Source: a virus (lineage: Duplodnaviria > Caudoviricetes). Taken from it: a stretch of DNA of 57,561 nt. This document shows positions 7,542 through 57,422 of this stretch, one piece after another; position 1 is the first letter of the stretch, and each line of letters opens with the position of its first letter. The stretch is taken from the IMG/VR virus record IMGVR_UViG_3300037697_000007, positions 1 through 57,561 of that record. One strand, 5' to 3'. Both the position numbers and the translations under genes were made by a program. The notes beneath the pieces are model-generated. The model was not told where the DNA came from, did no database searches, and saw only the letters and a list, made by a program, of their open reading frames with translations.

Positions 7542-7723
7542 TTTCTTTCCCCTTGTTGTTTACTCAATTTCTCCGCCGCCCTATCCCGCCTAAGTTGCGC
7601 CATGCTCCTGATGTGGTGCGATACCAGCCAAGCAATGTGCATATCGGCATGGTGGCGCATCTTGATTGTCTCGACTCTGGCGCGCTCTACCAGATGATCG
7701 ATGTTCGGTTGCCAGTCGGACAT
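7538..7723 (-). CDS. Hypothetical protein
   Basis: 61 aa, ATGA overlap with bet. Confidence 0.6.
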   Translation of the reverse strand: MSDWQPNIDHLVERARVETIKMRHHADMHIAWLVSHHIRSMAQLRRDRAAEKLSKQQGERK

Positions 7724-7725
7724 TT

Positions 7726-8274
7726 TTACTCACCATCGCTTCTATCGATCAACACCGCCCGAGTGTAGTCTGGGTAATAGGCTACATGGTGCGCGTTCGC
7801 TTCGTTGAATTCGGTGATGGCCTTTTGCAATTCAATCATCCCGCGCAAATCATTAAGGTCGAAATCTTCGTATGCGTCATCCATCACGGATTCGGTTATC
7901 GAGTCAGCATCCAATCGCACGAACTGAACGGGCTTCGTCGCCCATACATATTCCGGGTATTCCGTCGGCAACAGATCGTCCAGCAAAGTCGAAACATCGC
8001 TGTAGAATTCCTCGCCGTGGAATATCTGCCCGCTCCATGATGTGAGCTTTTCAGCTTTGTCGAACAATGCGCGCTCTTTTTCTGCAGCGCGCTTATCCAT
8101 GCATGCATCGCAGATTGTGCGGAACTCACCGCAATGCTCGCCGCAGATTGTGCATACCCACTGCTTGCAGCATTCGCTCGCCATCGTCTCGGTGCTGTGT
8201 ACTCGCTTGCACTTCTCGCACCAGTACACGCCGGCTGGCTTGCCGTCTTCTAGGTATAGTTGTTTGGCGTTCAT
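7726..8274 (-). CDS. Hypothetical protein with three CxxC pairs
   Basis: CEKC, CTIC, CDAC; GGAG RBS before MNAKQLY. Confidence 0.75.
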   Translation of the reverse strand: MNAKQLYLEDGKPAGVYWCEKCKRVHSTETMASECCKQWVCTICGEHCGEFRTICDACMDKRAAEKERALFDKAEKLTSWSGQIFHGEEFYSDVSTLLDDLLPTEYPEYVWATKPVQFVRLDADSITESVMDDAYEDFDLNDLRGMIELQKAITEFNEANAHHVAYYPDYTRAVLIDRSDGE

Positions 8275-15465: not shown

Positions 15466-15605
15466 CGGTATAATTCCCTATCGGCTTAGAATCCGATTAA
15501 AATTAACATGGCTTCACATGACCTATGGCGGCGTTAATTCCGTTATTCTAACTTCCAGAAATGGATGATAGGTCAGGTGAAGCCATTTTTATTTGCGGGA
15601 AGAAA

Positions 15606-16016
15606 ATGCCTCATAAAAAATCAAGTTTGCCATTTTGCAAAAAATGCAACAAGCCTCTATCAAGACCATTGTGCAAGTTGTGTAGACCTTGTGAAGTAGC
15701 AAGGCGGGCAAGTATGCGAACAATGCCTGTTGATGAATACAGAAAGGAATGGGCTAGAAAGAAAAAGTACAACCTTGAAGTTGGTGAGTTTGATGGCCTC
15801 TGGATTGTTTTTCGCGGTAAATGCGGTATATGCAATAGAGATATGAAGATGCCGGCGAAAGGCCAAGGACAGCAGCTTGATGTTGTCGCAATAGACCATG
15901 ACCATGCAACAGGTTTAGTTAGAGGTTTACTTTGCAACGCTTGCAATAAAGGAATAGGTCTTTTTAATGATAACCCTGAACTACTTAGGAGTGCGGCAAA
16001 ATGGGTAGCGAAATGA
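15606..16016 (+). CDS. Endonuclease VII-type (HNH) homing endonuclease
   Basis: CGIC...IDHDHATGLVRGLLCNACNKGIG; AT-rich. Confidence 0.9.
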   Translation: MPHKKSSLPFCKKCNKPLSRPLCKLCRPCEVARRASMRTMPVDEYRKEWARKKKYNLEVGEFDGLWIVFRGKCGICNRDMKMPAKGQGQQLDVVAIDHDHATGLVRGLLCNACNKGIGLFNDNPELLRSAAKWVAK

Positions 16017-17002
16017 CACGTAAATTGGCGTCTGTTCGGCGCATTGTTGAAATCAAGCAAATAGATGGAGCGGATTCGATTTGCTTATATCGGGTTGATG
16101 GTTGGTGGGTTGTAGACTCAATCGGGAAATATGGTGTAGGAGAACTTGTTATATACGCTGAGCCTGATAGCTGGGTTCCGTATGAGCTTGCACCATTCTT
16201 GTGCAGAGGAAAAGAGCCTCGCGAGTTTAACGGCGTGAAGGGCGAGCGTCTGCGCACGATCAAGCTGCGCGGCCAGATCAGCCAAGGTCTGGTGTTGCCG
16301 CTCGACCCGAGTGAGGACATGGCGTTCGATGGGCAGGACATGACTGAGCGTTACGGCATCCAGAAATGGGAGAAGCCAATTCCTGCGCAACTGCAAGGCC
16401 AGATGCGCGGAAACTTCCCATCTTGGATTCGCAAGACAGATCAGGAGCGCGTACAAAACCTTGACGGTGAGATTTACTGGGACGACGAGTACGAAATCAC
16501 CGTGAAGCTGGACGGCAGCAGCATGACCATATGGAATCATGATGGTGAGGTCGGCGTGTGTTCGCGCAACGTGGACTTGAAGATGGATCAGGAAGGAAAT
16601 TCTTTCGTCAATATGGCGAAGAAGATTCTTGGGCGGATCGAATTGCTGGAAGAAATCGCCATTCAGGGCGAGCTGATTGGGCCATCCATTCAGGGCAATC
16701 GAGAGGGTCTAGCGGAACATGAATTTTACGTGTTCGACATTTACGACATCGCTGCGCAGGCGTATTGGTCGCCGCTGAGCGTGCAGGCGTATTGCGAAAC
16801 CGCTGGACTAAATCATGTTCCCGTTATCGATTCTGCGTGCAAGTTGATAGACAAGGGTATTTGCTCGATTGAGTCCGCACTTGCATTCGCCGAAGGGAAA
16901 TCGCTGAATAACCCGGTGCGAGAGGGTTTGGTATTTAAGCGCACAGATGGGGAATTTTCGTTTAAGGCAATCAGCAACGTGTTTTTGTTGGGCGAAAAGT
17001 GA
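16013..17002 (+). CDS. ATP-dependent RNA ligase (DRB0094/Rnl2-like family)
   Basis: KLDGSS (motif I), QGELIG (III), FYVFDI (IIIa), REGLVFK (IV), FKAIS (V); OB-like N-terminus. Confidence 0.92.
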   Translation: MTRKLASVRRIVEIKQIDGADSICLYRVDGWWVVDSIGKYGVGELVIYAEPDSWVPYELAPFLCRGKEPREFNGVKGERLRTIKLRGQISQGLVLPLDPSEDMAFDGQDMTERYGIQKWEKPIPAQLQGQMRGNFPSWIRKTDQERVQNLDGEIYWDDEYEITVKLDGSSMTIWNHDGEVGVCSRNVDLKMDQEGNSFVNMAKKILGRIELLEEIAIQGELIGPSIQGNREGLAEHEFYVFDIYDIAAQAYWSPLSVQAYCETAGLNHVPVIDSACKLIDKGICSIESALAFAEGKSLNNPVREGLVFKRTDGEFSFKAISNVFLLGEK

Positions 17003-18053: not shown

Positions 18054-19105
18054 TTCAGTCGCAACTAAAACTCAGGTTGAGCGCAACTAAAGAAGCACAG
18101 CTTAATGACTGGCTATATTCGTTGACTGCGGTACATAACTTCGCGGTGCGCAAGATATAGCTTGACGCAAAGGATGGTATTTACTATACCAGCATGGGTT
18201 TTCATAACATCCTCGCAGATCACGGAAAAAAGATCGGCATCCCAAGCCACACAGTACAAGGGATGCTGTCACAAGTTCATGCTGCGTGGTCGCGTTGCTT
18301 CAAAAAGATTGGCGGAAAGCCGAAGCTTAAAGGGATTCGCAACAAACTAAATTCTATTCCGTTTCCTGACCCCATTAAGTCGCCAGATGGAAATCATGTC
18401 AAATTGCCCGGAGTTGGCTTGCTTCGTTTTCACAAGCAAAAGATACCAGAAGGCAAGATAAAGTGCGGTCGCGTCGTCAAGCGCGCTTCAGGCTGGTATC
18501 TGTGCCTGTTCATTGACGCGGAGCGCATATCCATCGAGCGCACCGCAAACGGAATGATCGGGATAGATCCAGGCTTCAAGGATTTAATTACCACATCTGA
18601 CGGGGAGAAAGTTCCGCACCCGAAAGAGTTGCAAACCTCACTATCCCGTCTAGGACAGGCACAGCGCGGCGGTAATAAGAAACTCGCTGCAAGGCTGCAT
18701 GAGCGTATTAAAAACCAGCGCAAAGACCGCAATCACAAGCTGTCGTTGCGTTTGGTGCAAGAGAATACCTTGATCGTTTTTTCGAAAGATAACATCAAGG
18801 GAGTTGCAAAGAAGTTTGGGAAGAGCGTAGCCAGCAGTGGGCATGCTCAACTTCGGTCAATGTTGGAGTACAAGAGCCGTGCAGGCGGTACTAAATACAT
18901 CGAAGCTATTTCCCGTAATTCCACTAGGACTTGTTCGTCGTGCGGAGCTTTAACCGGGCCGCAAGGATGGGCAGGACTATTAGTAAGGCAATGGAGTTGT
19001 GGCTGTGGTGCCGAGCATGACCGCGATATTAACGCGAGCATCAACACTCTTTTGCTGGGCATGGAACGTGCCTCGAATGATGGAGGGTTGCGCAATGTCG
19101 CGTGA
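18050..19105 (+). pseudogene. tnpB: TnpB RNA-guided nuclease with in-frame TAG at codon 37
   Basis: N-terminal KLRL...NFA HTH, GIDPG (RuvC-I), CSSCG..CGCG zinc finger, HDRDINA (RuvC-III); TAG at 18158-18160. Confidence 0.85.
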
Positions 19106-19446
19106 TTCTTCCCGGAATCCCAAGCCTTTAGGCGCGGGGAGGTTCAAACTCGAAACCTACCCAACCTGCAAAGCCAACCGCAAGACGCGCAAGCCTCTAC
19201 GCACTGCGCTGGAACTGGCATCCGAACACAAACTGAGCATGGCGCAACTGCGCGGCTATCTTGCCGGGAGCGATGCGCCCAAGCCGGAGATGGTCAACCG
19301 GCGCGGAGGTGCTTATTACGAGCCGATCGCGTTCCGCAAGTGGATTGCAAAAAAGTTGCCGCATTGAGCTATAACTTGTAGCAATAATTTATTGCTTGGT
19401 GTAGAGTGTCGGAACGCTAACAGGGCGCAACATTAGAGGGTAGATT

Positions 19447-21702
19447 GTGGCAAGGCCGTTGCATCAAATACCATTGTTCGAAATAAAGCCGGAAAACGAC
19501 GGTAAAAAAACATACCTGCCAATCCTGACCGCTGTAGAAAACGGTAAAGGCGTGCTGGATGTTGACACGGTAAAGGGGTGTGCAATTGGAATGAATGCAC
19601 ATCCCGATGGCGGATGTTATGGCGAGTGTTACGCACAGAAAAACGCTTCACGGTACGGAATAGATTTCACGTTTAGCGTTTCCAGAAAACTTACGGTCGA
19701 TAACTTTGCTGATGTTTTTTGCGCAGTTCGTGATTATCACGCTCCATGGTATCGGATAGGCACTGCTGGCGACCCGTCGCACGATTGGGAAAACACAATC
19801 TACGTTTGTGAGGCGTTGCGCGGAACCGGAAAGATTCCGGTAATTATTACGAAGCACTGGAAGACGTTATCAGATAGAGATTTGCAAAGACTTAAAAACG
19901 TGTCAGCGGTGATAAATACATCAACCAGTGGACTAGATACCGATGCAGAAACAAAGCATCGCGTGAGGCAAATTGAGCGCATTAGAGCGGCAGGAATTGT
20001 TAGCGTTTGCAGGGTGGTAACTTGCGAATATGGAACATCAGAATGGGCTAAAAAGTGCAAAGAAAAGCAGGATTTTTTACTGAGTTTGCATCCTGTTATT
20101 GACAACCCGTTAAGGGCCAGCAACACAAACGAACGAGTGATGAAAGGGGATATTTTACTAACCAGAAAAGAGCAATCAGTAGGCGGCGGGAAATTCGTAT
20201 CACTACATAACGCTGGCATTTATTTAGGCGCATGCGAAAGCTGCCAAGATCAATGCGGAGTTGAAGTTTCAAAAATCAAACCGAAGGAAGAAAAAATGCA
20301 AACAGTTCACCAAGATCAAACCGCACTATTCGAAGATGAAATCGAATGGGTTTATTGCCCTAGCGTTATCGGTTCAGGGTACGAGGAAGATGTTTCGCGG
20401 CTTGCCATCGAAGACGGAATAGCAAAGCGCGCAGCGCGCAAGAACATGCAGATTCATTCAGCCATAATCCTGAAAATAAATGGCGAGTTCAGCGGGTTCT
20501 TCACGTTCCAAGTGAACGACGTATCGAAAGAATTCTGCCTGCTGCAATCGGTAATTGAGCCGAAGAAATACACGAAAGAACTTTACGCGCAGATGGTGCG
20601 CGAGATGCTGGCCCATCGCCCAGAAAATTACCCGGCGATGATTACCACCGACCCAAAGAGCAAGTTCGAAACGCCATCGCTGTTTGAAAGCGTTGGATTT
20701 CAGACGTACCTGAAAATGTCAGGCTATCACTACATGGTCAACGGCAAGCTCGAAGACATGCGTTTGAAGCTGCTGGCACATATCACAATGACAAACGTCT
20801 GGAACACGGTAAAGGGTGACTGGCTGCGGCTGAAAAAGGAATGGCGCGAGCGTATTGATTTCGCGGGCGAGGCCGCTGGTGTTGAAAACCCATCCTATGC
20901 AACCCGTGAAGGATGCTGGCAAGGTGAAAACGGGATGAGCAACGTGGTCAACTCAAAAAAGAAAATCAACGAAGAAGGCGAGATCGAAACAACGACAAAA
21001 TCTCATAACGGCAATGCATCGGTTCTTGACCCGGTTGCATGCGAAGTAATTGCGCGCATGTTCATGCCGAAAGAGGGGAAGCGGATTTACAACCCGTTCG
21101 GCGGCGGCGTACAGATGGGGTACGTGGCCGGCGCATGCGGTTATGAATACTACGCAAGCGAGATTCGCCAGAATCAGGCCGATGCGAACAACAAGATATG
21201 CCAAGAGTTCGATGGGCGCGTTAAGTGGGTGCAAAGCGACTCCTCAACGCATTCCCCTGATGGCATGTTCGACCTTGTGTTCACTTGCCCGCCGTACTAC
21301 AAAGTAGAACATTACGTTGACTATGACGGAAACCCGCCTCCCGGCGAGCTTAACTCGTTCGACACCTACGAAAAGTTCCGCGACTTGTTGTTCACTGGAT
21401 ACAAAAAGGCAATCGAACACTTGAACGACAATCGGTTTTTCGTGGTTATGACGGGTGACAGCCGGGACAAAAACGGCGGATATCATTGCCACGAAGCTGA
21501 AACCGTTGTGTTCTTCAAAGAGCAAGGTCTGGCTGTTTACAACCAGATCGTTTATGTTGAATGCGAGTTTACGCGATTAGCGCATGCGAAAAAGACATTG
21601 CACACGCGGAAATTCCCAAAGCGCGAGCAAAAGATTATCGTCGCTTACAAGGGCAAGATTTCGGACATAAAAGACCACTTTGCACCGATTGGACGGCTGT
21701 AA
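19447..21702 (+). CDS. Radical SAM (SPL-like) + GNAT-like + N4/N6 DNA methyltransferase fusion
   Basis: GC-x11-C-x3-CYA, RIGTAGDP, IITK; SGFFTF...LFESVGF; SVLDP, YNPFGGG, TCPPYY. Confidence 0.8.
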   Translation: MARPLHQIPLFEIKPENDGKKTYLPILTAVENGKGVLDVDTVKGCAIGMNAHPDGGCYGECYAQKNASRYGIDFTFSVSRKLTVDNFADVFCAVRDYHAPWYRIGTAGDPSHDWENTIYVCEALRGTGKIPVIITKHWKTLSDRDLQRLKNVSAVINTSTSGLDTDAETKHRVRQIERIRAAGIVSVCRVVTCEYGTSEWAKKCKEKQDFLLSLHPVIDNPLRASNTNERVMKGDILLTRKEQSVGGGKFVSLHNAGIYLGACESCQDQCGVEVSKIKPKEEKMQTVHQDQTALFEDEIEWVYCPSVIGSGYEEDVSRLAIEDGIAKRAARKNMQIHSAIILKINGEFSGFFTFQVNDVSKEFCLLQSVIEPKKYTKELYAQMVREMLAHRPENYPAMITTDPKSKFETPSLFESVGFQTYLKMSGYHYMVNGKLEDMRLKLLAHITMTNVWNTVKGDWLRLKKEWRERIDFAGEAAGVENPSYATREGCWQGENGMSNVVNSKKKINEEGEIETTTKSHNGNASVLDPVACEVIARMFMPKEGKRIYNPFGGGVQMGYVAGACGYEYYASEIRQNQADANNKICQEFDGRVKWVQSDSSTHSPDGMFDLVFTCPPYYKVEHYVDYDGNPPPGELNSFDTYEKFRDLLFTGYKKAIEHLNDNRFFVVMTGDSRDKNGGYHCHEAETVVFFKEQGLAVYNQIVYVECEFTRLAHAKKTLHTRKFPKREQKIIVAYKGKISDIKDHFAPIGRL

Positions 21703-23170: not shown

Positions 23171-23467
23171 CAGCAATCGCCGCAGAGTCCAAGCGCAAAT
23201 GCCAGAATCTAGGCTGTGTCGCGCCCGAAGAGGTATCATTCCGGCTACAGAGCGGGGCTAGGAAGGCGAGGTGCAGGGCTTGTGCGGAGAAGGCGCGGAA
23301 GGGGCGGAAAAATAGTTGAAAAATAGTTGCGAAAGTTCTTGCATTACGGCGTTATGTTAGCGGGCAGAATGATATAATTGCTTTGCCGGGACAGGTGTTC
23401 GAACACTTTTCCCTCCCTCGACGGGGTGAATTACCGGCAACAGTCAATTACCGTCGAGGGGTATCAA

Positions 23468-23989
23468 ATGAAATTCTGCAAGAAATGTAATGTCGATACA
23501 GAGCGTACAGGGCGAGGTGTTTGCAAAATTTGTAAGAGTAAGCAAGACGCTAAATTATATGCAGAAAATGCGGAAATAAAGAAGAAAAAATCCGCTGCAT
23601 GGCGCATGAACAACCCCGACAAAGCTAGAGAAGTTCGTGATAAATGGCAGAAAGCAAACAAAGATAAAGTTTGTTTGAGTGTATTGAGATGGAAAAATGC
23701 AAATCCGCTCGCCATGGCCGCAATGTACAGAACGAGAAGAGCAAGAAAATATGCTGGAGGCAAACACACGGCGGAAGACATAATCCAGTTATTGAAATTG
23801 CAAAAATACAAATGCCCGTGTTGTAGGGTTAGTCTGAAGGCCGGATACCATGTAGATCACATTATTCCATTGGTGTTGGGTGGGACGAACAAAAAGGGAA
23901 ACTTACAAATTTTATGCCCTACTTGCAATTTGCAAAAATCAGCGAAACACCCGGTAGAGTTTATGCAGAGCCGAGGATATTTAATATGA
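23468..23989 (+). CDS. HNH endonuclease
   Basis: CPCC, HVDHIIPLVLGGTN..GNLQILCPTCN; AT-rich; own -10 and structured leader. Confidence 0.9.
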   Translation: MKFCKKCNVDTERTGRGVCKICKSKQDAKLYAENAEIKKKKSAAWRMNNPDKAREVRDKWQKANKDKVCLSVLRWKNANPLAMAAMYRTRRARKYAGGKHTAEDIIQLLKLQKYKCPCCRVSLKAGYHVDHIIPLVLGGTNKKGNLQILCPTCNLQKSAKHPVEFMQSRGYLI

Positions 23990-47459: not shown

Positions 47460-50400
47460 ATGGCATTCAATTTTGACGCGAGCGGCAACCAGATTGACGT
47501 GTCTGCCGGGTTTCATTTCGATGAAGACGGGAATCAGCTAACCGAGCAGCCGAAGTCTTCAGGTCTGATTGGCGGGTCAATCGATGCGCTCAAGTCCGGC
47601 TTCGGCAGCATGTCACGTTCAGCGCAAGCGACCGGATCGGCACTCTCCGGGAATAACGCCAACATTGAAGCATTGGCTGCAGAATCTGAAATTGCCAATA
47701 AGCAGCGACCGATTGAGGCACAGCAGTTCACAGAGTCCGTGCAGCGCAATACCGCAGAGTCGATGGCGGATGATAGAAAAGTCGGATGGCTTGAGGCTAT
47801 CGGTGATGTGGCTGCGGCGGCATGGGAGAACAAGACTGGCGCGGTACAGTCTATTGTCGAGCAGTTACCGAACGCCGTACCTGTGCTTGCGGCAGGATGG
47901 GCTGGGGCGAAAGCCGGTGCAGTTGGTGGCGGTGCGGCTGGTACGATGGTTGCACCAGGCGCGGGAACAGCAATCGGCGCAGGTATCGGCGGCGTTGTTG
48001 GCGCATTCTCCGGTATGTTTCTCGGCAATGCAATGCTTGAAACCGGCGCGAAGGCGATAGAGAAAGCCGAAGGCGGGCTGACCGATGTTGAGCGCGGCGA
48101 GGCTATCAGCGAGGGCGCAACCAAGGGCTCAGTGATTGCCGGGATCGATCTGTTAACGCTAGGTATCGGCGGAAAGCTGATGCAGTCTGTCGGCAAGGCT
48201 GCAACCAAGGCCGGTGCGATGGCGGAAGCGGAGGTCATCGCCAAGGCCGGAATCGACATCAGCAGCCCGGTAATTGTAGCCAAGGCATTAGCAGCAGACC
48301 CGGCATTGAAGGCGGCAGCTTCGGCAGCGGGCAATGCCGCAGCGCGCGCCACGATCACCACCTCGCAGAAAGCGGCGATGGCCGGCGGCGGGCTGGCGCT
48401 TGAGTCAGTCGGTGAGACAGCCGGCGAATACTTGGGTGAGATGGCCGCAACCGGCGAAGGTAACGTGACCGATGCCGTGCTGGAAGGCATGTTGAGCTTG
48501 GGCCAGTCCAGCATCGAGACGGCGTACAACTATGGGCGCGTCGGCAACAATCTTGATGCCAGCAATATCGCCAAGACGGGGCTGATATTCAAATCTCCAG
48601 AAAAGCCGCTTGCGCTTGGATATAATCAAGCAGCCGACGCATTCGGATCAAACGCGATTGTCTTCCCCGATGGTTCTGTCGCAACCAGCCAGAATCAGGT
48701 AGACGACTACCTGAACAGCCTTCCTGAAAATGAACGCATAGCTGCACGGGCATCATTATTCGGCTACGCGCAACAGCCAAAAACCCCGGAGCAAATCACC
48801 GCCGAAGTCATTTCCAAGCCCACCCTGGATGAAGCCATCAAAGCATCCAGCGACTTGCTGAATGATCCGATTCTTGACGATGCGGTGCAACGCGAGTTCG
48901 GTTCGCTGACCGAAACTCAGTCCCAGCGCGACATCGGCGCACTATCCCAAGGCGAGACCGGGTTCGGCGCAGTCTCCGAGCTGGCCGACCTTGCCGCACA
49001 AGAGCGCGCGGATGTTGAACAACGTCGTTCTGCCATCGCAGAACAGCAAGCCGAGTCTGGCGCATTGCGCATGGAATCCGAACTGGAAACCACCGATGCG
49101 CGCGTCACTGGTGCCGCCGCAGCACAAACACGCCAGAGCCGCCTTGCCGCACTGGATAGCATCTATGCCAACCCGGACGAGCGCACTCCCGGAATGTCGT
49201 TTCTGGCGCATCTGGAAGCCAACTATCCGCGCAACCCGCTACCGACACCGGAAGAGAAGCGCATCATCGCCCAGCGCGAACAGGCGTTTCAGGCGTTCAA
49301 GGCCATGCCGGAAAGCCAGCCAGAGACGCTTGGCGTTCCCGCGCTTGAGGAGAAAGCGCAGAACGGAGAGCGCCCGCTTGAAGCGAAGATCGCCCAATTG
49401 AATGAATATCTGGCGAACGGCTACAAGCCGATTGCCGGCGGCAAGATGCTGGCGAACGAGAAGGGTAAGAAGCTGATCCTGACGAAAGCGCAGCGAGAAT
49501 ACCTTGCAAACATGCCATCCGCGCAGCAATCTCAGGAGAGTGGCATTCCTGACCAAACGGCTGCGCAGCCTATTCAAGCGGAGGCCGCTAATGGCACAAC
49601 TGCTGCACCTATGGATGCCGGAGTGGATCGAGCAACCGCTGCAAGCCCAAGTGCTGACACCGCAGGAAGCGCAGCAAATGGCGTTCTTCGACCTGAGACT
49701 GTCGCAGCAGCCGGACGGGATGGATTGCCCAGATCACCTGTGGCAACTGATGCAGCGAGTGGACTTGTACCGGCACCAGATCGGGCCGATGCAGTAGCAA
49801 AATGGCTAGACAATGCAGCCCAGAAACTAGAGCAAGAGTCTTGGGGGCAGGACGTACTGGATACCATGCAGGAAAATGGGGAATCTCCGCAGGCTGTGGC
49901 AGAATCATTCTGGGCTGAAACCTATCCCGCCATGCCGGAGCAAGGCCAGAAGTTATTCAAGCGCCTTTACAAAAAGAATACAGGGCAATCATTGCAAGAC
50001 GGAGATAATCCTCTGGATATGATTGACCTTGGCGATACGGCGGAAAACTTGGAAGGGACGGAGCGCGGTTTTGTTGCGCTGATGCGCGAGGCAAACAGCC
50101 AATTTGGGCGCGGAAGGCTTGAGAAAGGAATTGTTGTTGATGGCGATGTTGTCGCCAAGCAACTGCCAAAATCCGCAGAAAATCCGCAAAAAGTCGAGTT
50201 AGACGCGACTACCTCGCCGACTACCTCGCCCAGCAAGAAGCCGTTCACCTGGCAAATGCCAAAGGCCGAGTTTGTCGCCCAGAAAGTCGCGGAAGGATTG
50301 TCGGAAGAGACGGCTGCGCGTGGGCACGAGAATGCGGTAAAGCTGGCGCTCAAGATGAAGAAGGACGTGCCGGCCAAGGTGCTGGCGGACTACCAAGGAG

Positions 50401-53400
50401 CAGGCGACGTTGCGCCACCGGCTGACGCTGATGCAATCGGTGCGGCTGTATTGCCTGTTGTTCAACAGGTCGGATCGCAGCCAACACAGTCGGATGGCGC
50501 GGTAGATGGAAGTTCGGTAGCAGAATTAACGCCAGCCGCGAACTGGAAGCAAACCGCGCAAGACATCATCAGCAAGGATGTGTTTCGCGATACGGTTGCA
50601 AAATCAATTCAGAACGACGGGCAGAAAGTCCTCGACGCGATATTTAACAATGACCTCGCCGCGCTGGTCGGGATCAATGCGAAATATGGACAAGAGGCTG
50701 GCCGTAACCAAGGAGGCGGCGGAGCAGGGCCAGGGAAAGTAAAACAGGCAAGGCGCGGTGTCGAGCCTGTATTCAATGCCGCCATGATTGCCATGCAAGG
50801 AATGAAGGCAGAGCGCTCCGCAAGCGTCAAGGCAGAAACGTCAAGCACGCAAGCCGGAAACGTAAAGCCGGAAGCGCAGGCGACCGAGCAAAGCAAGCAA
50901 TCCGCCATCGAGTCAGTCAAGGCCGACACCGAGCTTTCCAAGGCCGACAAGCTGAACACGATTAAGGCGCTCAACAACGGCGACATTTCGCCTGAGGATG
51001 TGGCGGATGTGGTGGGGAAGGCTGCGCCTATTGAAGCTGATGATGCGGCGCAGTCCGAACAGTCACAGGAGCGTCAGCTTGACGCGAAAGAACCAGAAGC
51101 GCAATATGATGCGTATGACACACTTGAAACTCGCCCAGAAACCAAGCCGGAGCAACTTGAAGCCGGACGGTCATCTCTTGCGGATGTCGAGAGACGCATC
51201 TTCGGGGTCAATCGTTCTTCGTTGCGAGGTTCAGCGGCCATACTTGGCAGTAATATCCCGTCCGACTTCCGCGAAAAAGGCTACACCTCACTCGTAGGGC
51301 AAAATGTTGAAAGCTCGCACGACCTAGCTATGATTTCGCAGGTCTTGCGAGATCCGCGATTCGAAACATTCCGCGTTTTTTTCGTCAAGGACAATAAGAT
51401 CGTCGGCGAACGCGCTTACACATCGAGGCTTGCCGCATCGGTAAGCATTCCGCGAGACCTTCACGAACACATCAGCGCCGACATGGGGCGCACTGGAGCG
51501 AATGGATACTGGTTACTGCATAACCACCCCGCCGGATTTGCCAAAGCGTCATCGTCGGATATTAACTTGACTGAGATGCTGGCGACCAATGCAAGCGGGA
51601 TGCTTGGTCACGTTATCATCGATCACAACGAATACAATTCGATCACCATAAAGTCCGGGCTGTACGGCCCGGAAGCCAAACAGGAAATCATCAAGGCGGA
51701 TTTGGGCGCGATGTCCGTATCGCCGGAAGTTCCGCACCCCACACTTGGCGCAACCATAACCAAGCCAGCAGACTTTGCCGCTATCGCACGACAACTCCAA
51801 AGGGATGGGGTGTATTCGTCAATCATCGGAACGGGCGGCGAGGCTGGTGCTGTAACGATGATACTTGACGTGCCAGATATGGCAAGCCGCAAAGGTGTTG
51901 ACAAGCTACGCGCAGGGGCCGCAATACGCCGCGCCGCAAGGGAAACGCATTCAGGAAGATTGTTTGCCGTTGTGCCGGGGGAATTGAGCCAGTACGCACA
52001 CCTGATGGATGCCGGATTATTTACCGACATTATCAGCCAATCAACCGGACAATCCGCCGCAGAACTTGGAATGCTTGGACGGGCAAGCCACGGCACGGCA
52101 GCGGAGAGGCGCGGAATGCTTGCGTATGTTGCGGAGCCGACTTCGCCTGATTACAGGCAGACCATCGAATCCAAGGAAACAGACCAAGGAACCGCGCTGT
52201 ACTCGTTCGCCGGGCAGAATGCGCAGACCGCAGACAAGATGGCTTTGTCCGCCGCGCAAGACCGCCTGAACGCGGGCGAGAATGCAGAGACGGTGCGCAA
52301 GGAAACCGGCTGGAGCAAAGGCGCGGATGGAAAGTGGAGGTTCGAGATCGACGACAGCGGCGCGAAGCTGCATAAGCCGTGGCCGAGCAAAGGCCAGTTG
52401 TTCGGCGACATTCTGAACGACATGCGCAAGCGCCGGTTCGCCGAGACTGGCAGCTTGAGCTTCACGGTTGGCGATGTACTCGACCATCCGGCACTGTTCG
52501 CTGCATATCCTGAGCTTGCGAATATCTCACTGACAGACCAGAAAGAGTCCGGCGCAAGCTACTCGCCAAAAGGAAGCGACCCGGCAACGATCCGCATCAG
52601 CAAAGATACGGCGATGTCGGATGTCGTCTCGAAAATATTGCATGAAGTGCAGCACGTAATCCAGCGCGGCGAGGGTTTCGCAACTGGAGGAACCGTAGAA
52701 TCGGCAAGGAAAATAAAAGCTGAAATCCTGAAATCAGATTTGGCAAAAATCAACGACGAGATCATTTCCAACGGGGAGAAGCGCGGAAAGCTAAATGGGC
52801 GCGCATGGGATGAGAATGTGGCGCGGCACCTCGAGCTTGTATCAAAGCGCGATGCGCTGGATGAAGAGTACCAAATCCTGAAAACTGACATGGCCCCAGC
52901 CGCACGAGCCTATCAGCGCCTTGCCGGTGAAGTCGAAGCGCGCAATACCCAATCGCGCCAGCGCATGACCGCCGACGAGCGCCGCACTGTCTCGCCGGAA
53001 TCGACCGCGGATGTCCGCGCGGAAGACGTAATCGTGGTGTTCAACGGAAAGGAGATGAACAACGCACCTATCCCGGCGAATGCGATTCAGGCCGACGAAC
53101 GACGCACCCCACCCCCCGACGCGCACTCTGTCGCATCCGCCCAATCCGCCCTCCTATCCGCGCACAGCGGCAAGATTCATGGCGCGCTCAAGGCGATGTT
53201 CGACGCGGGCAAGGCGAGCTCGATCACTGCTGCTCAGGCGGCGAATATCGTGGGCGAGGATGCGCTGTATTCGCGCGAAGAATACTTCAAGCGAGCAGAT
53301 CAGATTGAACGCGCACTGCAATCGATGGGATTGCGCGTAGATAGAGAAAAATCAAATGTTTCGGTATCAACGTATATCTATGCATATGCGCCAGAAGGTT

Positions 53401-56400
53401 CGCAATTCAAAGAGAACGAAGGCGAATATTTGAAGATTCGAATATCGAACCATAAGCTACCTGACTCATATGTTGAGCCGGACTTCGAAGTAATGGTCGG
53501 CGGCGGACATGATGGATCGCTGATGAATGATTATGGGACGTGGGATGAATCTGTTGAATTTGTCGCGCGCAAATTTGATATGGATGTTCCGCCAGTCATA
53601 AAGCGCCTTGATTCAAAGGCGAAAAGTGATGCGAAAAAAGCCACCAAGAAAGCTCGGGATTATGAAATAAATGAGTTGATTCGGAAAATAGAAGTCGCCA
53701 AGAAAGGCGCTTATTCGAAGTCTGGCTCGGGTATCTGGTGGCTGAATAAAGATTCTGGAAAATTGTCAGAGATGGCGCAGATAGGCAAGATGCCGGAAAT
53801 GAATTCAGAGCAAGTTAAGGTTGAATATATATCTCGCCTAGAAAAACAGCTTGCTGAAAAACAAGGCGGATTAAATCAAGACATCCGCTACGCCAACGAT
53901 GGCCGCGCGCTGGCCTTCTTCAACCCTGCGGACGGCATCACCTATTTCATCGCCGACCATCTCCCAAAGAGCGCCAGCGCGAAAGGACTGCGCGGGCTAG
54001 TTGCGCATGAGATCGGCGTGCATGCTTTACATCTAGGCCGTGACTCGAAGGAATGGCAGTCCATCTTGAAGCAAGTTGAACTGATGAACCGGGCCGGCAA
54101 TGCCAAAGTAAAGGCTGCTTGGGCGCAAGTTCCTGAAGGCACTCCTGCCGCACATGTTGTCGAAGAAACGCTGGCCTATCTGGTGCAGAATAATCCTGAT
54201 ATGCCGATAGTAAGGCGCGTCATCGCTTGGCTGCGGAACGCATTGCGTAACCTTGGGAAATCGCTACCTGTGTTGCAACGCGGGAAGTTCATGGCATGGG
54301 CTAACAGCCTGACCGAGGATGATCTTGTATTCATGGCGCAGGATGCGATGGCGAACTGGCGGCCTGAGAGTCAGGTGGAATCGGCTGGCAATGCGGCGGC
54401 GCTTATGTCGGTTGGAGGATACAACGTAGAGCAACAATTGCTTGATGATCTTGGCGCTATCCATCCTGATGTTGACGCATGGGTAAATATCAGCGGAGAC
54501 ACAATCAAGCTGGATGAATTGCAAATGCCGAAGGCAATTCGCGGGCAGGGCATTGGTTCGCGCTTCATGGATATTCTGACCGCATACGCCGACAAAAACG
54601 GCATGACCATCGCACTCACCGCAGCAGGTGATTTTGGCGGAAGCCGTGCCGGACAGGAGCGGTTCTATCGGCGGTTCGGATTCGTTCCAAACAAAGGACG
54701 TAGCAAGGATTACGCAATCAGCGAGAACATGATTCGCCGACCGGATAAGAATGCGGCGGCGCAGTTCAGCCGGTCGCAAGGCAATGCGCAGCCGGTCAAC
54801 CCGCGTGGCGGCAAGATTATTGGAGACTCTGGAAACTACGACGAAGCACAGCGCGCTGCACTGGAGCGCACTGGCTCTGTCATCACCAAGAAAACCATCG
54901 CCGATACGCTTCACAAGCTCAAGCAAGACGCATGGAAGAAGATGGCGCAAGGATTGGCTGACCAGTTCCGCCCAATCCGAGACTTGGATCAGCACGCCTA
55001 CAACCTGCTGCGCTTGTCCAAGGGTGCTACCGGAGCATTCGAGGCATTCATGCACTACGGCAAGCTATCGCTCAACGACGGCGCTACCGATGCAGACCAG
55101 AGCGGCGGGGTGCTTGAGAAAGTGTTCTTCCCGCTAGGCAAGGAATCGACAGACTTCTTGCGCTGGATTGCCGGTAATCGGGCTGAGAGGCTAATGGGAG
55201 AGGGCAAGGAGCGCCTATTCAACAAGGATGATATTGCCGCGTTCAAATCGCTAGCAGACCGCAAGGGAGATTTTGCCAATGACTACACGTTAATCGACGG
55301 AACCGTCACCCGCGACCGCAAGGCCATCTACAAGGATTCGCTGGTCAAGTTCAACGAGTTCAACAAGAACGTGCTGGACATTGCTGAACAATCTGGCCTG
55401 ATCGATGGCGACAGCCGCAAGCTGTGGGAGCATGAATTCTACGTCCCGTTCTACCGAGTTGCCGAAGAGAACGAAGGCGAAGCGCGCGGCATGTATATCA
55501 AGTCAGGCGTGATCCGCCAAGAGGCGTTTAAGAAGCTTAAGGGCGGCGAAGAGCAACTGAATGACCTGATGGCGAACACGCTGGGAAATTGGGCGCATCT
55601 GATAGATGCGTCAGCCAAGAACCGCGCGGCAACTGCAACGCTTGAAGCCGCAGAAAAGATGGGAGTCGCGCGCAAGGCGGTTGCTGGCGATACAAAGACT
55701 GTCTGGGTTATGGGGACAGTAGAGAAGAAAATCGCAAAAGGTACAGAGTACGAAGAGAATGGCGTAACCAAAGTATCTGATGGAACTACGGTGATAACGT
55801 ATCACGGGAAAGTCGAATACAAGATTGACGATCCATACATTGTGGAAGCCGTATCCTCGCTGGAATTCTCCGGTATTCGTGGCCCGATGATGGATATTCT
55901 TTCCAAGCCGAAGCATTGGCTGACCATTGGTGTGACGGCATCCCCGTTCTTCAAGATCCGCAACCTAATCCGCGACTCTGTGCAGGCGATTGCGACATCT
56001 GACTTGAACTACAACCCGGCATCGAACGTGATAGAGGGATGGAAGCTAACCAACCGCAAGAAGCCTTCGCAGCAGTACGTTTCCGCGCTGGCCGGCGGCG
56101 GTTTGATTCGCTTTGGCACAATGCTTGAAGGCAACGAGGCAAGCCGGGTGCGCCAGCTTATCAAGCAGGGCGCGAAGGACGAGCATATTCTTGACGACGA
56201 AGGCAAGATCAGAGTCTTCTACGACAAGTATGTTGAGCCATCAATCACCATGTACAACGAACTCGGGAACCGTGGCGAGGAAGTCAACCGCATGTCGCTG
56301 TATCATCAGTTGCGCGAGAAAGGCATGGGCCACGCAGAAGCGTCTGTGATGTCGCGCGACCTGATGGACTTTTCCATGCAAGGATCGTGGAAGACGGTTC

Positions 56401-57422
56401 GATTCCTGACTCAGCTTGTTCCGTTTCTTAACGCGCGTATCCAAGGCATGTATAAACTGGGCCGCGCATCGACAGAAGACAAGGCGCGATTCGCTGTTGT
56501 GTTGGGCGCGGTGACGATGGTATCGCTTGCGCTGCTGGCAATGTATGGCGATGACGATGATTGGAAGAAGCGCGAGGACTGGGATCGGGACAACTATTGG
56601 TGGTTCAAGTTGGGTGGTGTCGCTTTCCGTGTGCCGAAGCCGTTTGAAATTGGCGCGATTGCTACGCTGGCAGAACGTACTGCGGAACTTGCCTTCGACA
56701 AGGAAATGACCGGGCAGCGGTTTGCAGACACCACGACCAGCCTGATTGCGAACCAGTTGGCGATGAACCCTGTGCCGCAGACGTTCAAGCCGATGATCGA
56801 CTTGTATGCCAATCAGGATTCGTTCAGCAAGCGCCCGATTGAATCTATGGGTATGGAGCGATTAGAGCCAGGCATGCGGTTTACACAAAACACCAGCATG
56901 CTTGCGCGCGGAATCAGTTCTGCCGGAAATGCGCTGACTGGCGATAACTTCTTGTCTCCGGTTCAACTGGACTTCCTGAACAAGGCGTACTTCGGATGGC
57001 TTGGCGCGACGGCAGTTAGCTCTGCCGACATGATGGTTCGCGGCATCAGCAACGAGCCGACGCGGCCAGCGGTCGATCACTGGAAGTTTGCATCAGGCGG
57101 CATGGTGGCGGAATTGAGCAGTGCGCAAAGCCGTTACGTTTCGATGATGTACGACCAAGCCGCAGAATTGGAACAGGCTTATGCGACCTACAACAGGCTG
57201 CGCAAAGACGGAAAGATAGAAGACGCCAAGGAGTACCGAGAAGAGCACAAAGACGAACTGAGCAAGTATCACAAGGTGGAGAACGTCAAGCGCAGCATCA
57301 GCAAGATTAACGAGCGCATACGTTTAATTGAAAAAGGGGCGCTGACAGCAGATGAAAAGCGGGCCTTGGTTATCCCGTTGCGGGAGAAACAGAGCGAGCT
57401 TGCAAAGCGGCTTTACCAGTAA
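47460..57422 (+). CDS. Giant polyvalent ejection protein (JAB/RadC-like, LPD23-like, two zincin-like, GNAT, LPD38-like domains)
   Basis: HNHPAG..S.SD; TGW.KGADGKWRFEIDD; HEVQH...GEVEAR; HEIGVH...EE; RGQGIG...FYRRFGF; RVPKPFEIG. Confidence 0.88.
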   Translation: MAFNFDASGNQIDVSAGFHFDEDGNQLTEQPKSSGLIGGSIDALKSGFGSMSRSAQATGSALSGNNANIEALAAESEIANKQRPIEAQQFTESVQRNTAESMADDRKVGWLEAIGDVAAAAWENKTGAVQSIVEQLPNAVPVLAAGWAGAKAGAVGGGAAGTMVAPGAGTAIGAGIGGVVGAFSGMFLGNAMLETGAKAIEKAEGGLTDVERGEAISEGATKGSVIAGIDLLTLGIGGKLMQSVGKAATKAGAMAEAEVIAKAGIDISSPVIVAKALAADPALKAAASAAGNAAARATITTSQKAAMAGGGLALESVGETAGEYLGEMAATGEGNVTDAVLEGMLSLGQSSIETAYNYGRVGNNLDASNIAKTGLIFKSPEKPLALGYNQAADAFGSNAIVFPDGSVATSQNQVDDYLNSLPENERIAARASLFGYAQQPKTPEQITAEVISKPTLDEAIKASSDLLNDPILDDAVQREFGSLTETQSQRDIGALSQGETGFGAVSELADLAAQERADVEQRRSAIAEQQAESGALRMESELETTDARVTGAAAAQTRQSRLAALDSIYANPDERTPGMSFLAHLEANYPRNPLPTPEEKRIIAQREQAFQAFKAMPESQPETLGVPALEEKAQNGERPLEAKIAQLNEYLANGYKPIAGGKMLANEKGKKLILTKAQREYLANMPSAQQSQESGIPDQTAAQPIQAEAANGTTAAPMDAGVDRATAASPSADTAGSAANGVLRPETVAAAGRDGLPRSPVATDAASGLVPAPDRADAVAKWLDNAAQKLEQESWGQDVLDTMQENGESPQAVAESFWAETYPAMPEQGQKLFKRLYKKNTGQSLQDGDNPLDMIDLGDTAENLEGTERGFVALMREANSQFGRGRLEKGIVVDGDVVAKQLPKSAENPQKVELDATTSPTTSPSKKPFTWQMPKAEFVAQKVAEGLSEETAARGHENAVKLALKMKKDVPAKVLADYQGAGDVAPPADADAIGAAVLPVVQQVGSQPTQSDGAVDGSSVAELTPAANWKQTAQDIISKDVFRDTVAKSIQNDGQKVLDAIFNNDLAALVGINAKYGQEAGRNQGGGGAGPGKVKQARRGVEPVFNAAMIAMQGMKAERSASVKAETSSTQAGNVKPEAQATEQSKQSAIESVKADTELSKADKLNTIKALNNGDISPEDVADVVGKAAPIEADDAAQSEQSQERQLDAKEPEAQYDAYDTLETRPETKPEQLEAGRSSLADVERRIFGVNRSSLRGSAAILGSNIPSDFREKGYTSLVGQNVESSHDLAMISQVLRDPRFETFRVFFVKDNKIVGERAYTSRLAASVSIPRDLHEHISADMGRTGANGYWLLHNHPAGFAKASSSDINLTEMLATNASGMLGHVIIDHNEYNSITIKSGLYGPEAKQEIIKADLGAMSVSPEVPHPTLGATITKPADFAAIARQLQRDGVYSSIIGTGGEAGAVTMILDVPDMASRKGVDKLRAGAAIRRAARETHSGRLFAVVPGELSQYAHLMDAGLFTDIISQSTGQSAAELGMLGRASHGTAAERRGMLAYVAEPTSPDYRQTIESKETDQGTALYSFAGQNAQTADKMALSAAQDRLNAGENAETVRKETGWSKGADGKWRFEIDDSGAKLHKPWPSKGQLFGDILNDMRKRRFAETGSLSFTVGDVLDHPALFAAYPELANISLTDQKESGASYSPKGSDPATIRISKDTAMSDVVSKILHEVQHVIQRGEGFATGGTVESARKIKAEILKSDLAKINDEIISNGEKRGKLNGRAWDENVARHLELVSKRDALDEEYQILKTDMAPAARAYQRLAGEVEARNTQSRQRMTADERRTVSPESTADVRAEDVIVVFNGKEMNNAPIPANAIQADERRTPPPDAHSVASAQSALLSAHSGKIHGALKAMFDAGKASSITAAQAANIVGEDALYSREEYFKRADQIERALQSMGLRVDREKSNVSVSTYIYAYAPEGSQFKENEGEYLKIRISNHKLPDSYVEPDFEVMVGGGHDGSLMNDYGTWDESVEFVARKFDMDVPPVIKRLDSKAKSDAKKATKKARDYEINELIRKIEVAKKGAYSKSGSGIWWLNKDSGKLSEMAQIGKMPEMNSEQVKVEYISRLEKQLAEKQGGLNQDIRYANDGRALAFFNPADGITYFIADHLPKSASAKGLRGLVAHEIGVHALHLGRDSKEWQSILKQVELMNRAGNAKVKAAWAQVPEGTPAAHVVEETLAYLVQNNPDMPIVRRVIAWLRNALRNLGKSLPVLQRGKFMAWANSLTEDDLVFMAQDAMANWRPESQVESAGNAAALMSVGGYNVEQQLLDDLGAIHPDVDAWVNISGDTIKLDELQMPKAIRGQGIGSRFMDILTAYADKNGMTIALTAAGDFGGSRAGQERFYRRFGFVPNKGRSKDYAISENMIRRPDKNAAAQFSRSQGNAQPVNPRGGKIIGDSGNYDEAQRAALERTGSVITKKTIADTLHKLKQDAWKKMAQGLADQFRPIRDLDQHAYNLLRLSKGATGAFEAFMHYGKLSLNDGATDADQSGGVLEKVFFPLGKESTDFLRWIAGNRAERLMGEGKERLFNKDDIAAFKSLADRKGDFANDYTLIDGTVTRDRKAIYKDSLVKFNEFNKNVLDIAEQSGLIDGDSRKLWEHEFYVPFYRVAEENEGEARGMYIKSGVIRQEAFKKLKGGEEQLNDLMANTLGNWAHLIDASAKNRAATATLEAAEKMGVARKAVAGDTKTVWVMGTVEKKIAKGTEYEENGVTKVSDGTTVITYHGKVEYKIDDPYIVEAVSSLEFSGIRGPMMDILSKPKHWLTIGVTASPFFKIRNLIRDSVQAIATSDLNYNPASNVIEGWKLTNRKKPSQQYVSALAGGGLIRFGTMLEGNEASRVRQLIKQGAKDEHILDDEGKIRVFYDKYVEPSITMYNELGNRGEEVNRMSLYHQLREKGMGHAEASVMSRDLMDFSMQGSWKTVRFLTQLVPFLNARIQGMYKLGRASTEDKARFAVVLGAVTMVSLALLAMYGDDDDWKKREDWDRDNYWWFKLGGVAFRVPKPFEIGAIATLAERTAELAFDKEMTGQRFADTTTSLIANQLAMNPVPQTFKPMIDLYANQDSFSKRPIESMGMERLEPGMRFTQNTSMLARGISSAGNALTGDNFLSPVQLDFLNKAYFGWLGATAVSSADMMVRGISNEPTRPAVDHWKFASGGMVAELSSAQSRYVSMMYDQAAELEQAYATYNRLRKDGKIEDAKEYREEHKDELSKYHKVENVKRSISKINERIRLIEKGALTADEKRALVIPLREKQSELAKRLYQ
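49591..49797 (+). CDS. Probable overprinted 68-aa gene nested in the +1 frame of the giant ORF
   Basis: GGAGG 6 nt before ATG; globular composition while the host frame is low-complexity. Confidence 0.5.
   Translation: MAQLLHLWMPEWIEQPLQAQVLTPQEAQQMAFFDLRLSQQPDGMDCPDHLWQLMQRVDLYRHQIGPMQ

Follow-up and report, generated by a model that had tools for sequence, protein, structure and literature searches.

The window analysed here is a complete phage genome of 57,561 bp (Duplodnaviria; Caudoviricetes; IMG/VR record IMGVR_UViG_3300037697_000007) with direct terminal repeats at its ends. At 19447..21702 on the plus strand, it carries a gene for a 751-amino-acid (aa) protein that joins an N-terminal domain resembling radical S-adenosylmethionine (SAM) enzymes (hereafter the N-domain), a GNAT-fold domain and a SAM-dependent methyltransferase module (Table 1). 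A first-pass annotation had singled out this open reading frame (ORF) as a candidate enzyme of DNA hypermodification, and both the ORF and the motifs on which that proposal relied are in place: GC-x11-C-x3-CYA (aa 44-63), RIGTAGDP (103-110), IITKH (133-137), NTSTSGLD (157-164), QIERIRAAGI (175-184) and CESCQDQC (263-270) in the N-domain; NGEFSGFFTF (345-354), LLQSVIEP (365-372) and LFESVGF (412-418) in the GNAT domain; SVLDPVACE (525-533), YNPFGGG (548-554) and TCPPYY (613-618) in the methyltransferase module.

The joining of three domains in one protein is real. Searching with aa 1-450 as query (E<=1e-3, 8000 candidates scored) recovered 1962 related proteins, of which the best 120 all fall in the same length class of 707-771 aa, with 64-83% identity and no informative name. 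The three parts are strongly conserved in 33 full-length relatives, where the linker at aa 276-297 alone is poorly conserved; within this linker, the AlphaFold2 (AF2) model drops below 50 in predicted local distance difference test (pLDDT) at aa 285-295. An independent 1780-nt contig (run X3) matches positions 19013-20792 with 0 differences and therefore spans the first domain junction, and an uninterrupted fused ORF was found in 13 of 61 related loci. An assembly or gene-calling artefact, which the first-pass annotation had allowed for, is excluded by these relatives, fused loci and contig; no support for it was found, some short relatives being themselves chimeric or frameshifted (P0342, P0308, L012), and we regard it as refuted, with a negligible residual probability. 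The three-domain architecture is common in uncultured phages from metagenome-assembled genomes (MAGs) of many phyla. Among the short relatives, P0342 (364 aa) has a GNAT domain and methyltransferase start joined to the C-terminal half of an N-domain-like sequence, and P0308 (401 aa) a truncated methyltransferase followed by a DUF1778 (PF08681) region; both are probably chimeric, damaged or rearranged records and were excluded from use.

The AF2 model of the N-domain, built on a 44-homologue alignment, folds into six beta-alpha units (pLDDT 91.5; predicted template modelling score, pTM, 0.88), which is the (beta/alpha)6 core of the radical SAM superfamily, with weak structural matches. In this model the Cys triad comes right after beta-1, G-x-x-G-D-P after beta-2 and NTSTSGLD after beta-4, three places that in radical SAM cores belong to the loop holding the cluster, to the 'GGE' motif and to the ribose motif, respectively. 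Foldseek, run per domain as the first-pass annotation had proposed, led the N-domain to radical SAM enzymes with weak scores: its best PDB match is the pyruvate formate-lyase (PFL)-activating enzyme (E 7.5e-4, template modelling (TM) score 0.43/0.51), the top 10 matches listed are all radical SAM enzymes (PFL-AE, EpeE, MgmA), and these make up 26 of the 45 PDB matches listed, judged by their descriptions, the remainder being other TIM barrels. Against the viral models of BFVD, 4 matches reached E<=1e-3 and the top two were named Radical_SAM. Sequence searches of PDB returned nothing significant for the whole protein or the full-length profile, and for the N-domain profile a designed TIM barrel (7UEK, E 1.7e-4) as sole match. 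A protein-atlas search provided leads only (GP88 0.94, DUF7227 0.90, Radical_SAM/DUF5131 0.88, GNAT 0.82), and DUF5131 and GP88 were weakly matched by one relative each out of 44. The N-domain does not match TIGR04070, the equivalog model of spore photoproduct lyase (SPL).

Across 44 diverse homologues of the N-domain, G44, C61, R103, G105, R223, C266 and C270 are invariant, and C45, C57, Y62, G108, P110, W114, S159, D164, R189, Q208 and C263 are at least 90% conserved. Exhaustive searching of 1.84 billion representatives turned up 229 relatives (139 at E<=1e-10, 47 at E<=1e-30), a good many of which stand alone as proteins 250-300 aa long. A Cys-motif census of the window protein and the 150 best of these relatives found the triad in 116 sequences: in 111 the first gap varies and the last is X3 (apparent first gaps of 15-20 residues reflecting an extra upstream Cys caught by the search pattern), 2 have X4 in the last gap and 3, all distant relatives, have the canonical CX3CX2C; most of the 35 sequences without a triad by this pattern are presumably fragments. 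The second cluster, CX2CX3C, gave only a weak Molybdop_Fe4S4 match (E 0.05). In one metagenomic protein (P0205, 701 aa), a relative of the N-domain (37% identity, E 7e-21) is joined with an ATP-dependent DNA ligase domain (PF01068, E 1e-19), a second fusion with an enzyme of DNA and one of another type. When viral contigs were scanned with three distant stand-alone N-domain relatives, one protein at a time, no relative was found.

The decisive link to radical SAM enzymes came from comparing the gene neighbourhoods of relatives. A phage contig from a Melioribacteraceae MAG (L019) carries a corresponding gene that encodes only the GNAT and methyltransferase parts (463 aa) and overlaps by 4 nt the gene of a 286-aa protein with a canonical CQHDCKYC motif, which passes the Pfam Radical_SAM model (34.0 bits vs a cut-off of 29.5). 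By hhalign, the N-domain family (alignment A1) aligns with this partner at 93.7% (E 1.9e-7) and with an alignment of 7 canonical partners at 94.9% (E 4.2e-8) over 135 columns, C57 and C61 falling on the second and third Cys of CX3CX2C. The homology of the window domain to radical SAM enzymes is visible only by profile-profile comparison. The nearest models of the canonical partners are PA0069 (E 1e-18), mobile pair B (2.5e-18), Rv2578c (2e-9) and SPL (4e-6); as their scores lie far below the NCBIfam cut-offs (e.g. 26 bits vs 400 for the L019 partner against SPL), these partners belong to an SPL-like neighbourhood and are members of no named family. Their profile found nothing significant among PDB sequences. 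Because the canonical partners are closest to these four models, and in view of the structural model, the Foldseek matches and the profile alignment, the earlier description of the N-domain as SPL-like radical SAM with a non-canonical Cys spacing is a fair one. The canonical partners (alignment A5; L019 9386..10246 and 6 others) have five further invariant Cys (C19, C85, C192, C269, C270), and they and the divergent domain may each carry a second metal site.

For the middle part, the first-pass annotation had suspected a GNAT-like domain, and here structure was decisive where sequence methods were blind. Its AF2 model (pLDDT 89.3, 34 relatives) has 252 PDB matches at E<=1e-3 (TM 0.6-0.73), led by GCN5/PCAF acetyltransferase domains, NatC, AAC(2') and small bacterial GNATs, which establishes the GNAT fold, a beta-sheet in which beta4 and beta5 splay apart, with helices alpha3 and alpha4. 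Searches of PDB sequences with the whole protein and with the profile of the GNAT domain returned nothing significant, and no Pfam GNAT model was matched by the window domain or by its relatives, apart from 1 of 34 (E 0.054). A basic helix, RAARKNMQ (aa 328-335), and a beta-4 strand, EFCLLQS (aa 362-368), are invariant in relatives, and the domain is always fused directly upstream of the methyltransferase. Membership of the Mom family was considered and rejected (hhalign of GNAT alignment A3 vs Mu Mom: probability 0.07%, E 0.68).

The methyltransferase call holds at the family level. The module matches phrog_12517 (E 7e-41) and, over aa 491-747, phrog_498 'DNA methyltransferase' (E 7.6e-38), and its match to PF01555 (E 2e-4, 21.8 bits) stays below the Pfam threshold of 26.7; a precomputed PF01555 match exists for 10 of the 120 best relatives listed. 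Its motifs run in the order I then IV, permuted relative to the PF01555 model. A tblastn search returned 29 phage records, all matching within aa 450-751 and, where annotated, mostly ParB-domain proteins or methyltransferases. Identity to the ParB-methyltransferases of phiFL3A, B054 and ZRG1 reaches 31-33% over ~300 aa (alignment A4), and this alignment bears out the earlier remark that motif I reads NPFGGGVQMG here vs DPFAGGSVRG in relatives. In amino-methyltransferases, motif IV starts with D, N or S. Here, F[TS]CPPY occurs in 5/5 aligned sequences and its Cys is invariant in relatives and ParB-fused kin; a Cys in this place is the mark of the whole CPPY family. No biochemical characterisation of this family was found in the literature searched, and a Pfam scan detected no ParB domain in the window protein. 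The characterised ParB-linked enzymes described in PMC7736820, M.EcoGIX and M.BceJIII, are beta-class with DPPY, and the accounts in PMC4738411 and PMC12704722 present ParB-terminase-linked phage methyltransferases as only predicted to modify DNA at packaging. In ZRG1, the ParB-methyltransferase is followed by an annotated adenosylmethionine decarboxylase gene (L065 2450..2839), just before the terminase genes.

The association of the three parts was followed through 61 related loci, 21 from species genomes and 40 from viral contigs. Besides the 13 uninterrupted fusions, the N-domain gene precedes a GNAT-methyltransferase gene in 2 loci, and the GNAT-methyltransferase gene is followed by a stand-alone N-domain gene in 27 (gap -32..+1 nt, mostly -4 or -1) and by a canonical radical SAM gene in 8, which correspond to 7 distinct contigs because L019 and L023 are the same contig; because the query used to collect the viral loci was of the split type, these numbers do not represent the true ratio of fused to split forms. 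An 88-aa remnant of a canonical radical SAM gene was seen in 1 locus; 3 others are cut on one side by the contig end and uninformative, and 7 are partial or broken. Clustering of the neighbours brought out no further conserved gene: the large extra clusters are antisense shadow ORFs of the fusion gene itself, and no RNA-ligase cluster is common to at least 3 related loci. Fusion, fission, change of order and displacement by a canonical enzyme together argue that a radical-SAM-type partner works with the GNAT-methyltransferase, and that the divergent domain fills the role of a genuine radical SAM enzyme. These gene arrangements link the three parts functionally, the genetic linkage being obligatory. 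A complex prediction of the N-domain with the GNAT-methyltransferase, including 4Fe-4S and SAM, gave no verdict (score 0.00) and is no evidence either way. The folds or families of the three parts, their conservation and their genetic linkage are established here, and the putative catalytic residues are under strong purifying conservation in all three.

PHROG and domain scans of the ORFs gave the genome a lambdoid-like gene order, with a RecE-like exonuclease, Bet/RecT and SSB in the left arm, and located the fusion gene between replication genes and ninB/ninG (Table 1). Directly 5' of it, inside the replication module, lies a TnpB-like ORF with OrfB_IS605 and a Cas12f1-like TNB domain (phrog_506 transposase, E 3e-59); it covers positions 73-361 of the 403 of the phrog_506 profile and may be short at its N-terminus, and no TnpA was seen near it. 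An endonuclease VII gene, an RNA ligase gene and an HNH/endonuclease-VII-like protein also surround the fusion gene, and the right end of the genome is occupied by a single giant ORF. In a 25-kb contig of a related phage (run X6, ~6% flank differences), position 19423 is joined straight to 21792, the gene and its ribosome-binding site being missing; the far side of this junction matches over 42 nt only, beyond which the contig diverges. This contig suggests, as weak evidence given the 42-nt far side, that the gene may be a present-or-absent cassette.

Table 1. Positions of the fusion gene, its parts and surrounding genes in the 57,561-bp window
Feature	Position (nt)	Strand	Remark
O-like initiator	13237
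DnaB	13933
Endonuclease VII	15561..16016	+
RNA ligase	16001..17002	+	PF09414 and PHA02142 OB domain
TnpB-like ORF	18194..19105	+	303 aa
Shine-Dalgarno-like GAGGG	19436..19440	+	6 nt 5' of GTG; read from sequence
Whole fusion gene	19447..21702	+	GTG start, 751 aa plus stop; three domains in one protein
N-terminal radical-SAM-like (beta/alpha)6 domain, aa 1-275	19447..20271	+	AF2 model, Foldseek, hhalign
Cys triad C45-x11-C57-x3-C61 then Y62-A63	19579..19629	+	Presumed [4Fe-4S] site in loop after beta-1; binding inferred
Second Cys cluster C263-x2-C266-x3-C270	20233..20256	+	Candidate auxiliary Fe-S or Zn site
Variable linker, aa 276-297	20272..20337	+	Alignment of 33 full-length relatives; low pLDDT
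GNAT-fold domain, aa 298-436	20338..20754	+	AF2 model and Foldseek
SAM-dependent methyltransferase module, aa 437-751	20755..21699	+	PHROG matches; ParB-methyltransferase alignment
Methyltransferase motif I, NPFGGG	21091-21108	+	Within module
Methyltransferase motif IV, TCPPYY	21283-21300	+	Within module
NinB	21820
NinG	22594
HNH/endonuclease-VII-like protein	23378..23989	+
Q-like match	24304		Weak
Single 3320-aa ORF	47460..57422	+	Right genome end

Several known systems offer precedents for the three chemistries. Elp3, the catalytic subunit of Elongator, modifies tRNA U34 (cm5U). In this enzyme, which unites a radical SAM and a GNAT domain, a 5'-deoxyadenosyl radical makes an acetyl-CoA (coenzyme A) radical that attacks uridine (PMC7261163). 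The likeness to the window protein lies in the presence of a radical SAM and a GCN5-like GNAT domain in one nucleic-acid modifier, GCN5/PCAF domains being the best matches of the GNAT part here, and Elp3 would be the simplest model for cooperation between the two N-terminal parts. Only the combination of domains is common to both, however: neither Pfam nor NCBIfam gave a match to an Elp3 model at E<=1, the radical SAM portion falls in the SPL/PA0069-like clade, has CX11CX3C and is often a separate downstream gene, and a third module, a phage context and a likely DNA target are added. SPL and gp53 of phage M6 are radical SAM enzymes acting on bases within DNA, the SPL-like gp53 rearranging an amino-acid adduct on a DNA base (PMC8989533); the window domain, by contrast, matches none of SPL, PA0069, Rv2578c or mobile pair B directly, and has an expanded Cys motif and an extra CX2CX3C. 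Mom of phage Mu is likewise a phage protein of GNAT fold, which transfers glycine from Gly-tRNA to N6 of adenine in double-stranded DNA after replication and serves restriction evasion (PMC13219725). Mom shows that a GNAT without the classical CoA role can act on DNA, but has no homology to the domain studied here beyond the fold and works without a radical SAM or methyltransferase partner. The ParB-methyltransferases (phrog_498; gp36 of Enterococcus phage phiFL3A, gp77 of Listeria phage B054, and that of Pseudomonas phage ZRG1) are homologous to the module over ~300 aa and have in common with it motif I, the unusual F[TS]CPPY, the segment 'S[VI][LF]DPV' and, further upstream, a helix region with W...W; they differ by an N-terminal ParB, by the lack of a radical SAM partner and by their position next to terminase genes.

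With about an even chance of being right, we propose that this gene of a temperate-type phage specifies a self-contained enzyme of DNA hypermodification, which most likely works post-replicatively on the double-stranded DNA of the phage and yields a base beyond plain methylation. A DNA target is suggested by the kinship of the methyltransferase with phage ParB-methyltransferases, by the position of the gene among replication and nin genes, by the fusion of one N-domain relative to an ATP-dependent DNA ligase domain, and by the proximity of the canonical partners to PA0069 and Rv2578c, both listed among SOS/LexA genes in the cited sources (PMC3381160; bioRxiv 10.1101/2022.03.14.484287). From sequence, models and the precedents of Elp3, M6 gp53 and Mom, we infer cofactor binding, target, order of steps, product and anti-restriction role as follows. 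The methyltransferase (Rossmann fold, NPFGGG/CPPY) would bind SAM, recognise DNA, flip the target base out and methylate an exocyclic or appended nitrogen. The GNAT domain would bind an acyl donor, which could be an acyl-CoA (the Elp3 case) or an aminoacyl-tRNA (the Mu Mom case), and present or transfer the acyl or aminoacyl group at the same base. A [4Fe-4S] cluster held by C45, C57 and C61 of the radical-SAM-like domain would cleave a second SAM to a 5'-deoxyadenosyl radical, which could activate a C-H of the GNAT-bound acyl group for an Elp3-like C-C bond formation on the base, or a C-H of a group already attached, for a rearrangement like that performed by M6 gp53. Such a product would protect phage DNA against the nucleases of the host. 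The coupled exocyclic-amine chemistry giving a restriction-protecting base, as put forward in the first-pass annotation, is in this respect a reasonable hypothesis, strengthened by the fusion, fission and displacement described above. More tentatively, and as a possible form that we consider rather doubtful, the system could be an Elp3-like radical machine in one polypeptide, working on DNA, in which a new CX6-12CX3C branch of radical SAM enzymes generates a carbon radical on a GNAT-held acyl or aminoacyl group and grafts it onto a canonical base held and methylated by the CPPY module, yielding an undescribed hypermodified base without a precursor pathway and travelling as a mobile cassette in phages from MAGs of many bacterial phyla.

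A number of observations weigh against a hypermodification enzyme of this kind. For the N-domain, no more than one PDB match attains E<=1e-3 (TM 0.43-0.51), and SPL is missing from the 45 PDB matches listed; the window protein matches no radical SAM model in Pfam (including PF04055) or NCBIfam at E<=1, and weak Pfam Radical_SAM matches occur in only 3 of 44 relatives (best E 0.0029). Its Cys triad, CX11CX3C, sits at the homologous place after beta-1 but departs in spacing from the canonical CX3CX2C that binds the [4Fe-4S] cluster in the superfamily, and an X3 gap between the second and third Cys is not known to us from any characterised radical SAM enzyme; as other non-canonical spacings occur in proven radical SAM enzymes, this lowers the case for membership and does not exclude it. 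In the GNAT domain, the Q/RxxGxG/A pyrophosphate-binding loop, which lies between beta4 and alpha3 in motif A of classical GNATs, is missing, as the first-pass annotation had noticed; in its place the fused clade has EPKKYT and the split clade DLNKKDK. With a loop that differs between sub-clades in this way, the domain could be non-catalytic. The ParB-fused relatives of the methyltransferase have neither a radical SAM nor a GNAT partner, so that plain methylation is within the repertoire of the module, and in one locus (L015) the GNAT-methyltransferase gene (465 aa) is intact, whereas the canonical radical SAM gene next to it has decayed to 88 aa (7569..7835). No other hypermodification gene turned up when 20 other ORFs of the phage were scanned against PHROG; this, together with the absence of a further conserved partner, means that the system appears to start from canonical bases. 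Finally, the RNA ligase two genes upstream leaves room for an RNA role.

These points bear first on an orphan DNA methyltransferase producing plain N6-methyladenine or N4-methylcytosine, in which the GNAT and radical-SAM-like domains would be non-catalytic and serve DNA loading, sequence recognition or regulation, standing where ParB stands in the related phage enzymes. The identity to ParB-methyltransferases, with the same motifs I and IV and with the GNAT in ParB's N-terminal place, fits such an enzyme, as do a GNAT domain devoid of the CoA pyrophosphate loop and invisible to GNAT sequence models, the non-canonical Cys spacing and the survival of the L015 methyltransferase. Against it, the Cys triad, G-x-x-G-D-P, S159/D164, R189 and R223, at places where a radical SAM core is expected to have its catalytic residues, are invariant or nearly so in homologues only 23-51% identical to the window domain, the GNAT beta-4 strand is invariant, and the replacement of the N-domain by a canonical CX3CX2C enzyme in 7 distinct contigs is hard to reconcile with a structural appendage; we consider it unlikely. 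Quite unlikely too is an Elp3-like modifier of host or phage tRNA or rRNA, acting, for example, through a change of decoding or protection of tRNAs against anticodon nucleases. xPPY methyltransferases do include RNA and protein-glutamine methyltransferases, the window protein has weak PrmC-like matches and its phage an RNA ligase gene, and the radical SAM and GNAT combination is that of Elp3, which acts on tRNA U34 (PMC7261163). Yet no Elp3 model was matched in the Pfam and NCBIfam scans at E<=1, no RNA-ligase cluster recurs in 3 or more of the related loci, a DNA ligase domain is the fusion partner of one N-domain relative, and the nearest kin of the methyltransferase are phage ParB fusions, predicted DNA modifiers at packaging (Iyer et al., cited in PMC4738411). 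The DNA ligase fusion would also suit an SPL-like enzyme of DNA repair or damage reversal rather than a modifier, as would the closeness of the canonical partners to SPL, PA0069 and Rv2578c, the latter two being SOS-regulon genes; the obligatory link with a methyltransferase and a GNAT, however, has no counterpart in known SPL-type repair, and the NCBIfam scores far below the family cut-offs also speak against repair, which we hold to be very unlikely.

The kinds of domain and the role, phage nucleic-acid modification, are known, whereas the combination, the branch of the radical SAM motif and the probable product are new: full-text searches of the literature, covering main texts, found no description of the three-domain architecture, in agreement with the first-pass annotation, nor of a CX(n)CX3C domain family. 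Most of the known hypermodifications of phage DNA depend on a precursor pathway (such as 5-hydroxymethyldeoxyuridine or 5-hydroxymethyldeoxycytidine) and on several enzymes, Mom being a rare single-enzyme case. Here, one gene or a tight gene pair unites three chemistries, each with a precedent in nucleic-acid modification. If a new base is truly made from canonical DNA, the system would represent a new route of restriction or CRISPR evasion and, for the first time on DNA, chemistry of the Elp3 type. It would establish a new cluster motif for radical SAM enzymes and would serve as a compact means of derivatising DNA at specific sites. A large unnamed protein family, the stand-alone radical-SAM-like relatives of that family and the uncharacterised CPPY methyltransferase family would gain a function as well.

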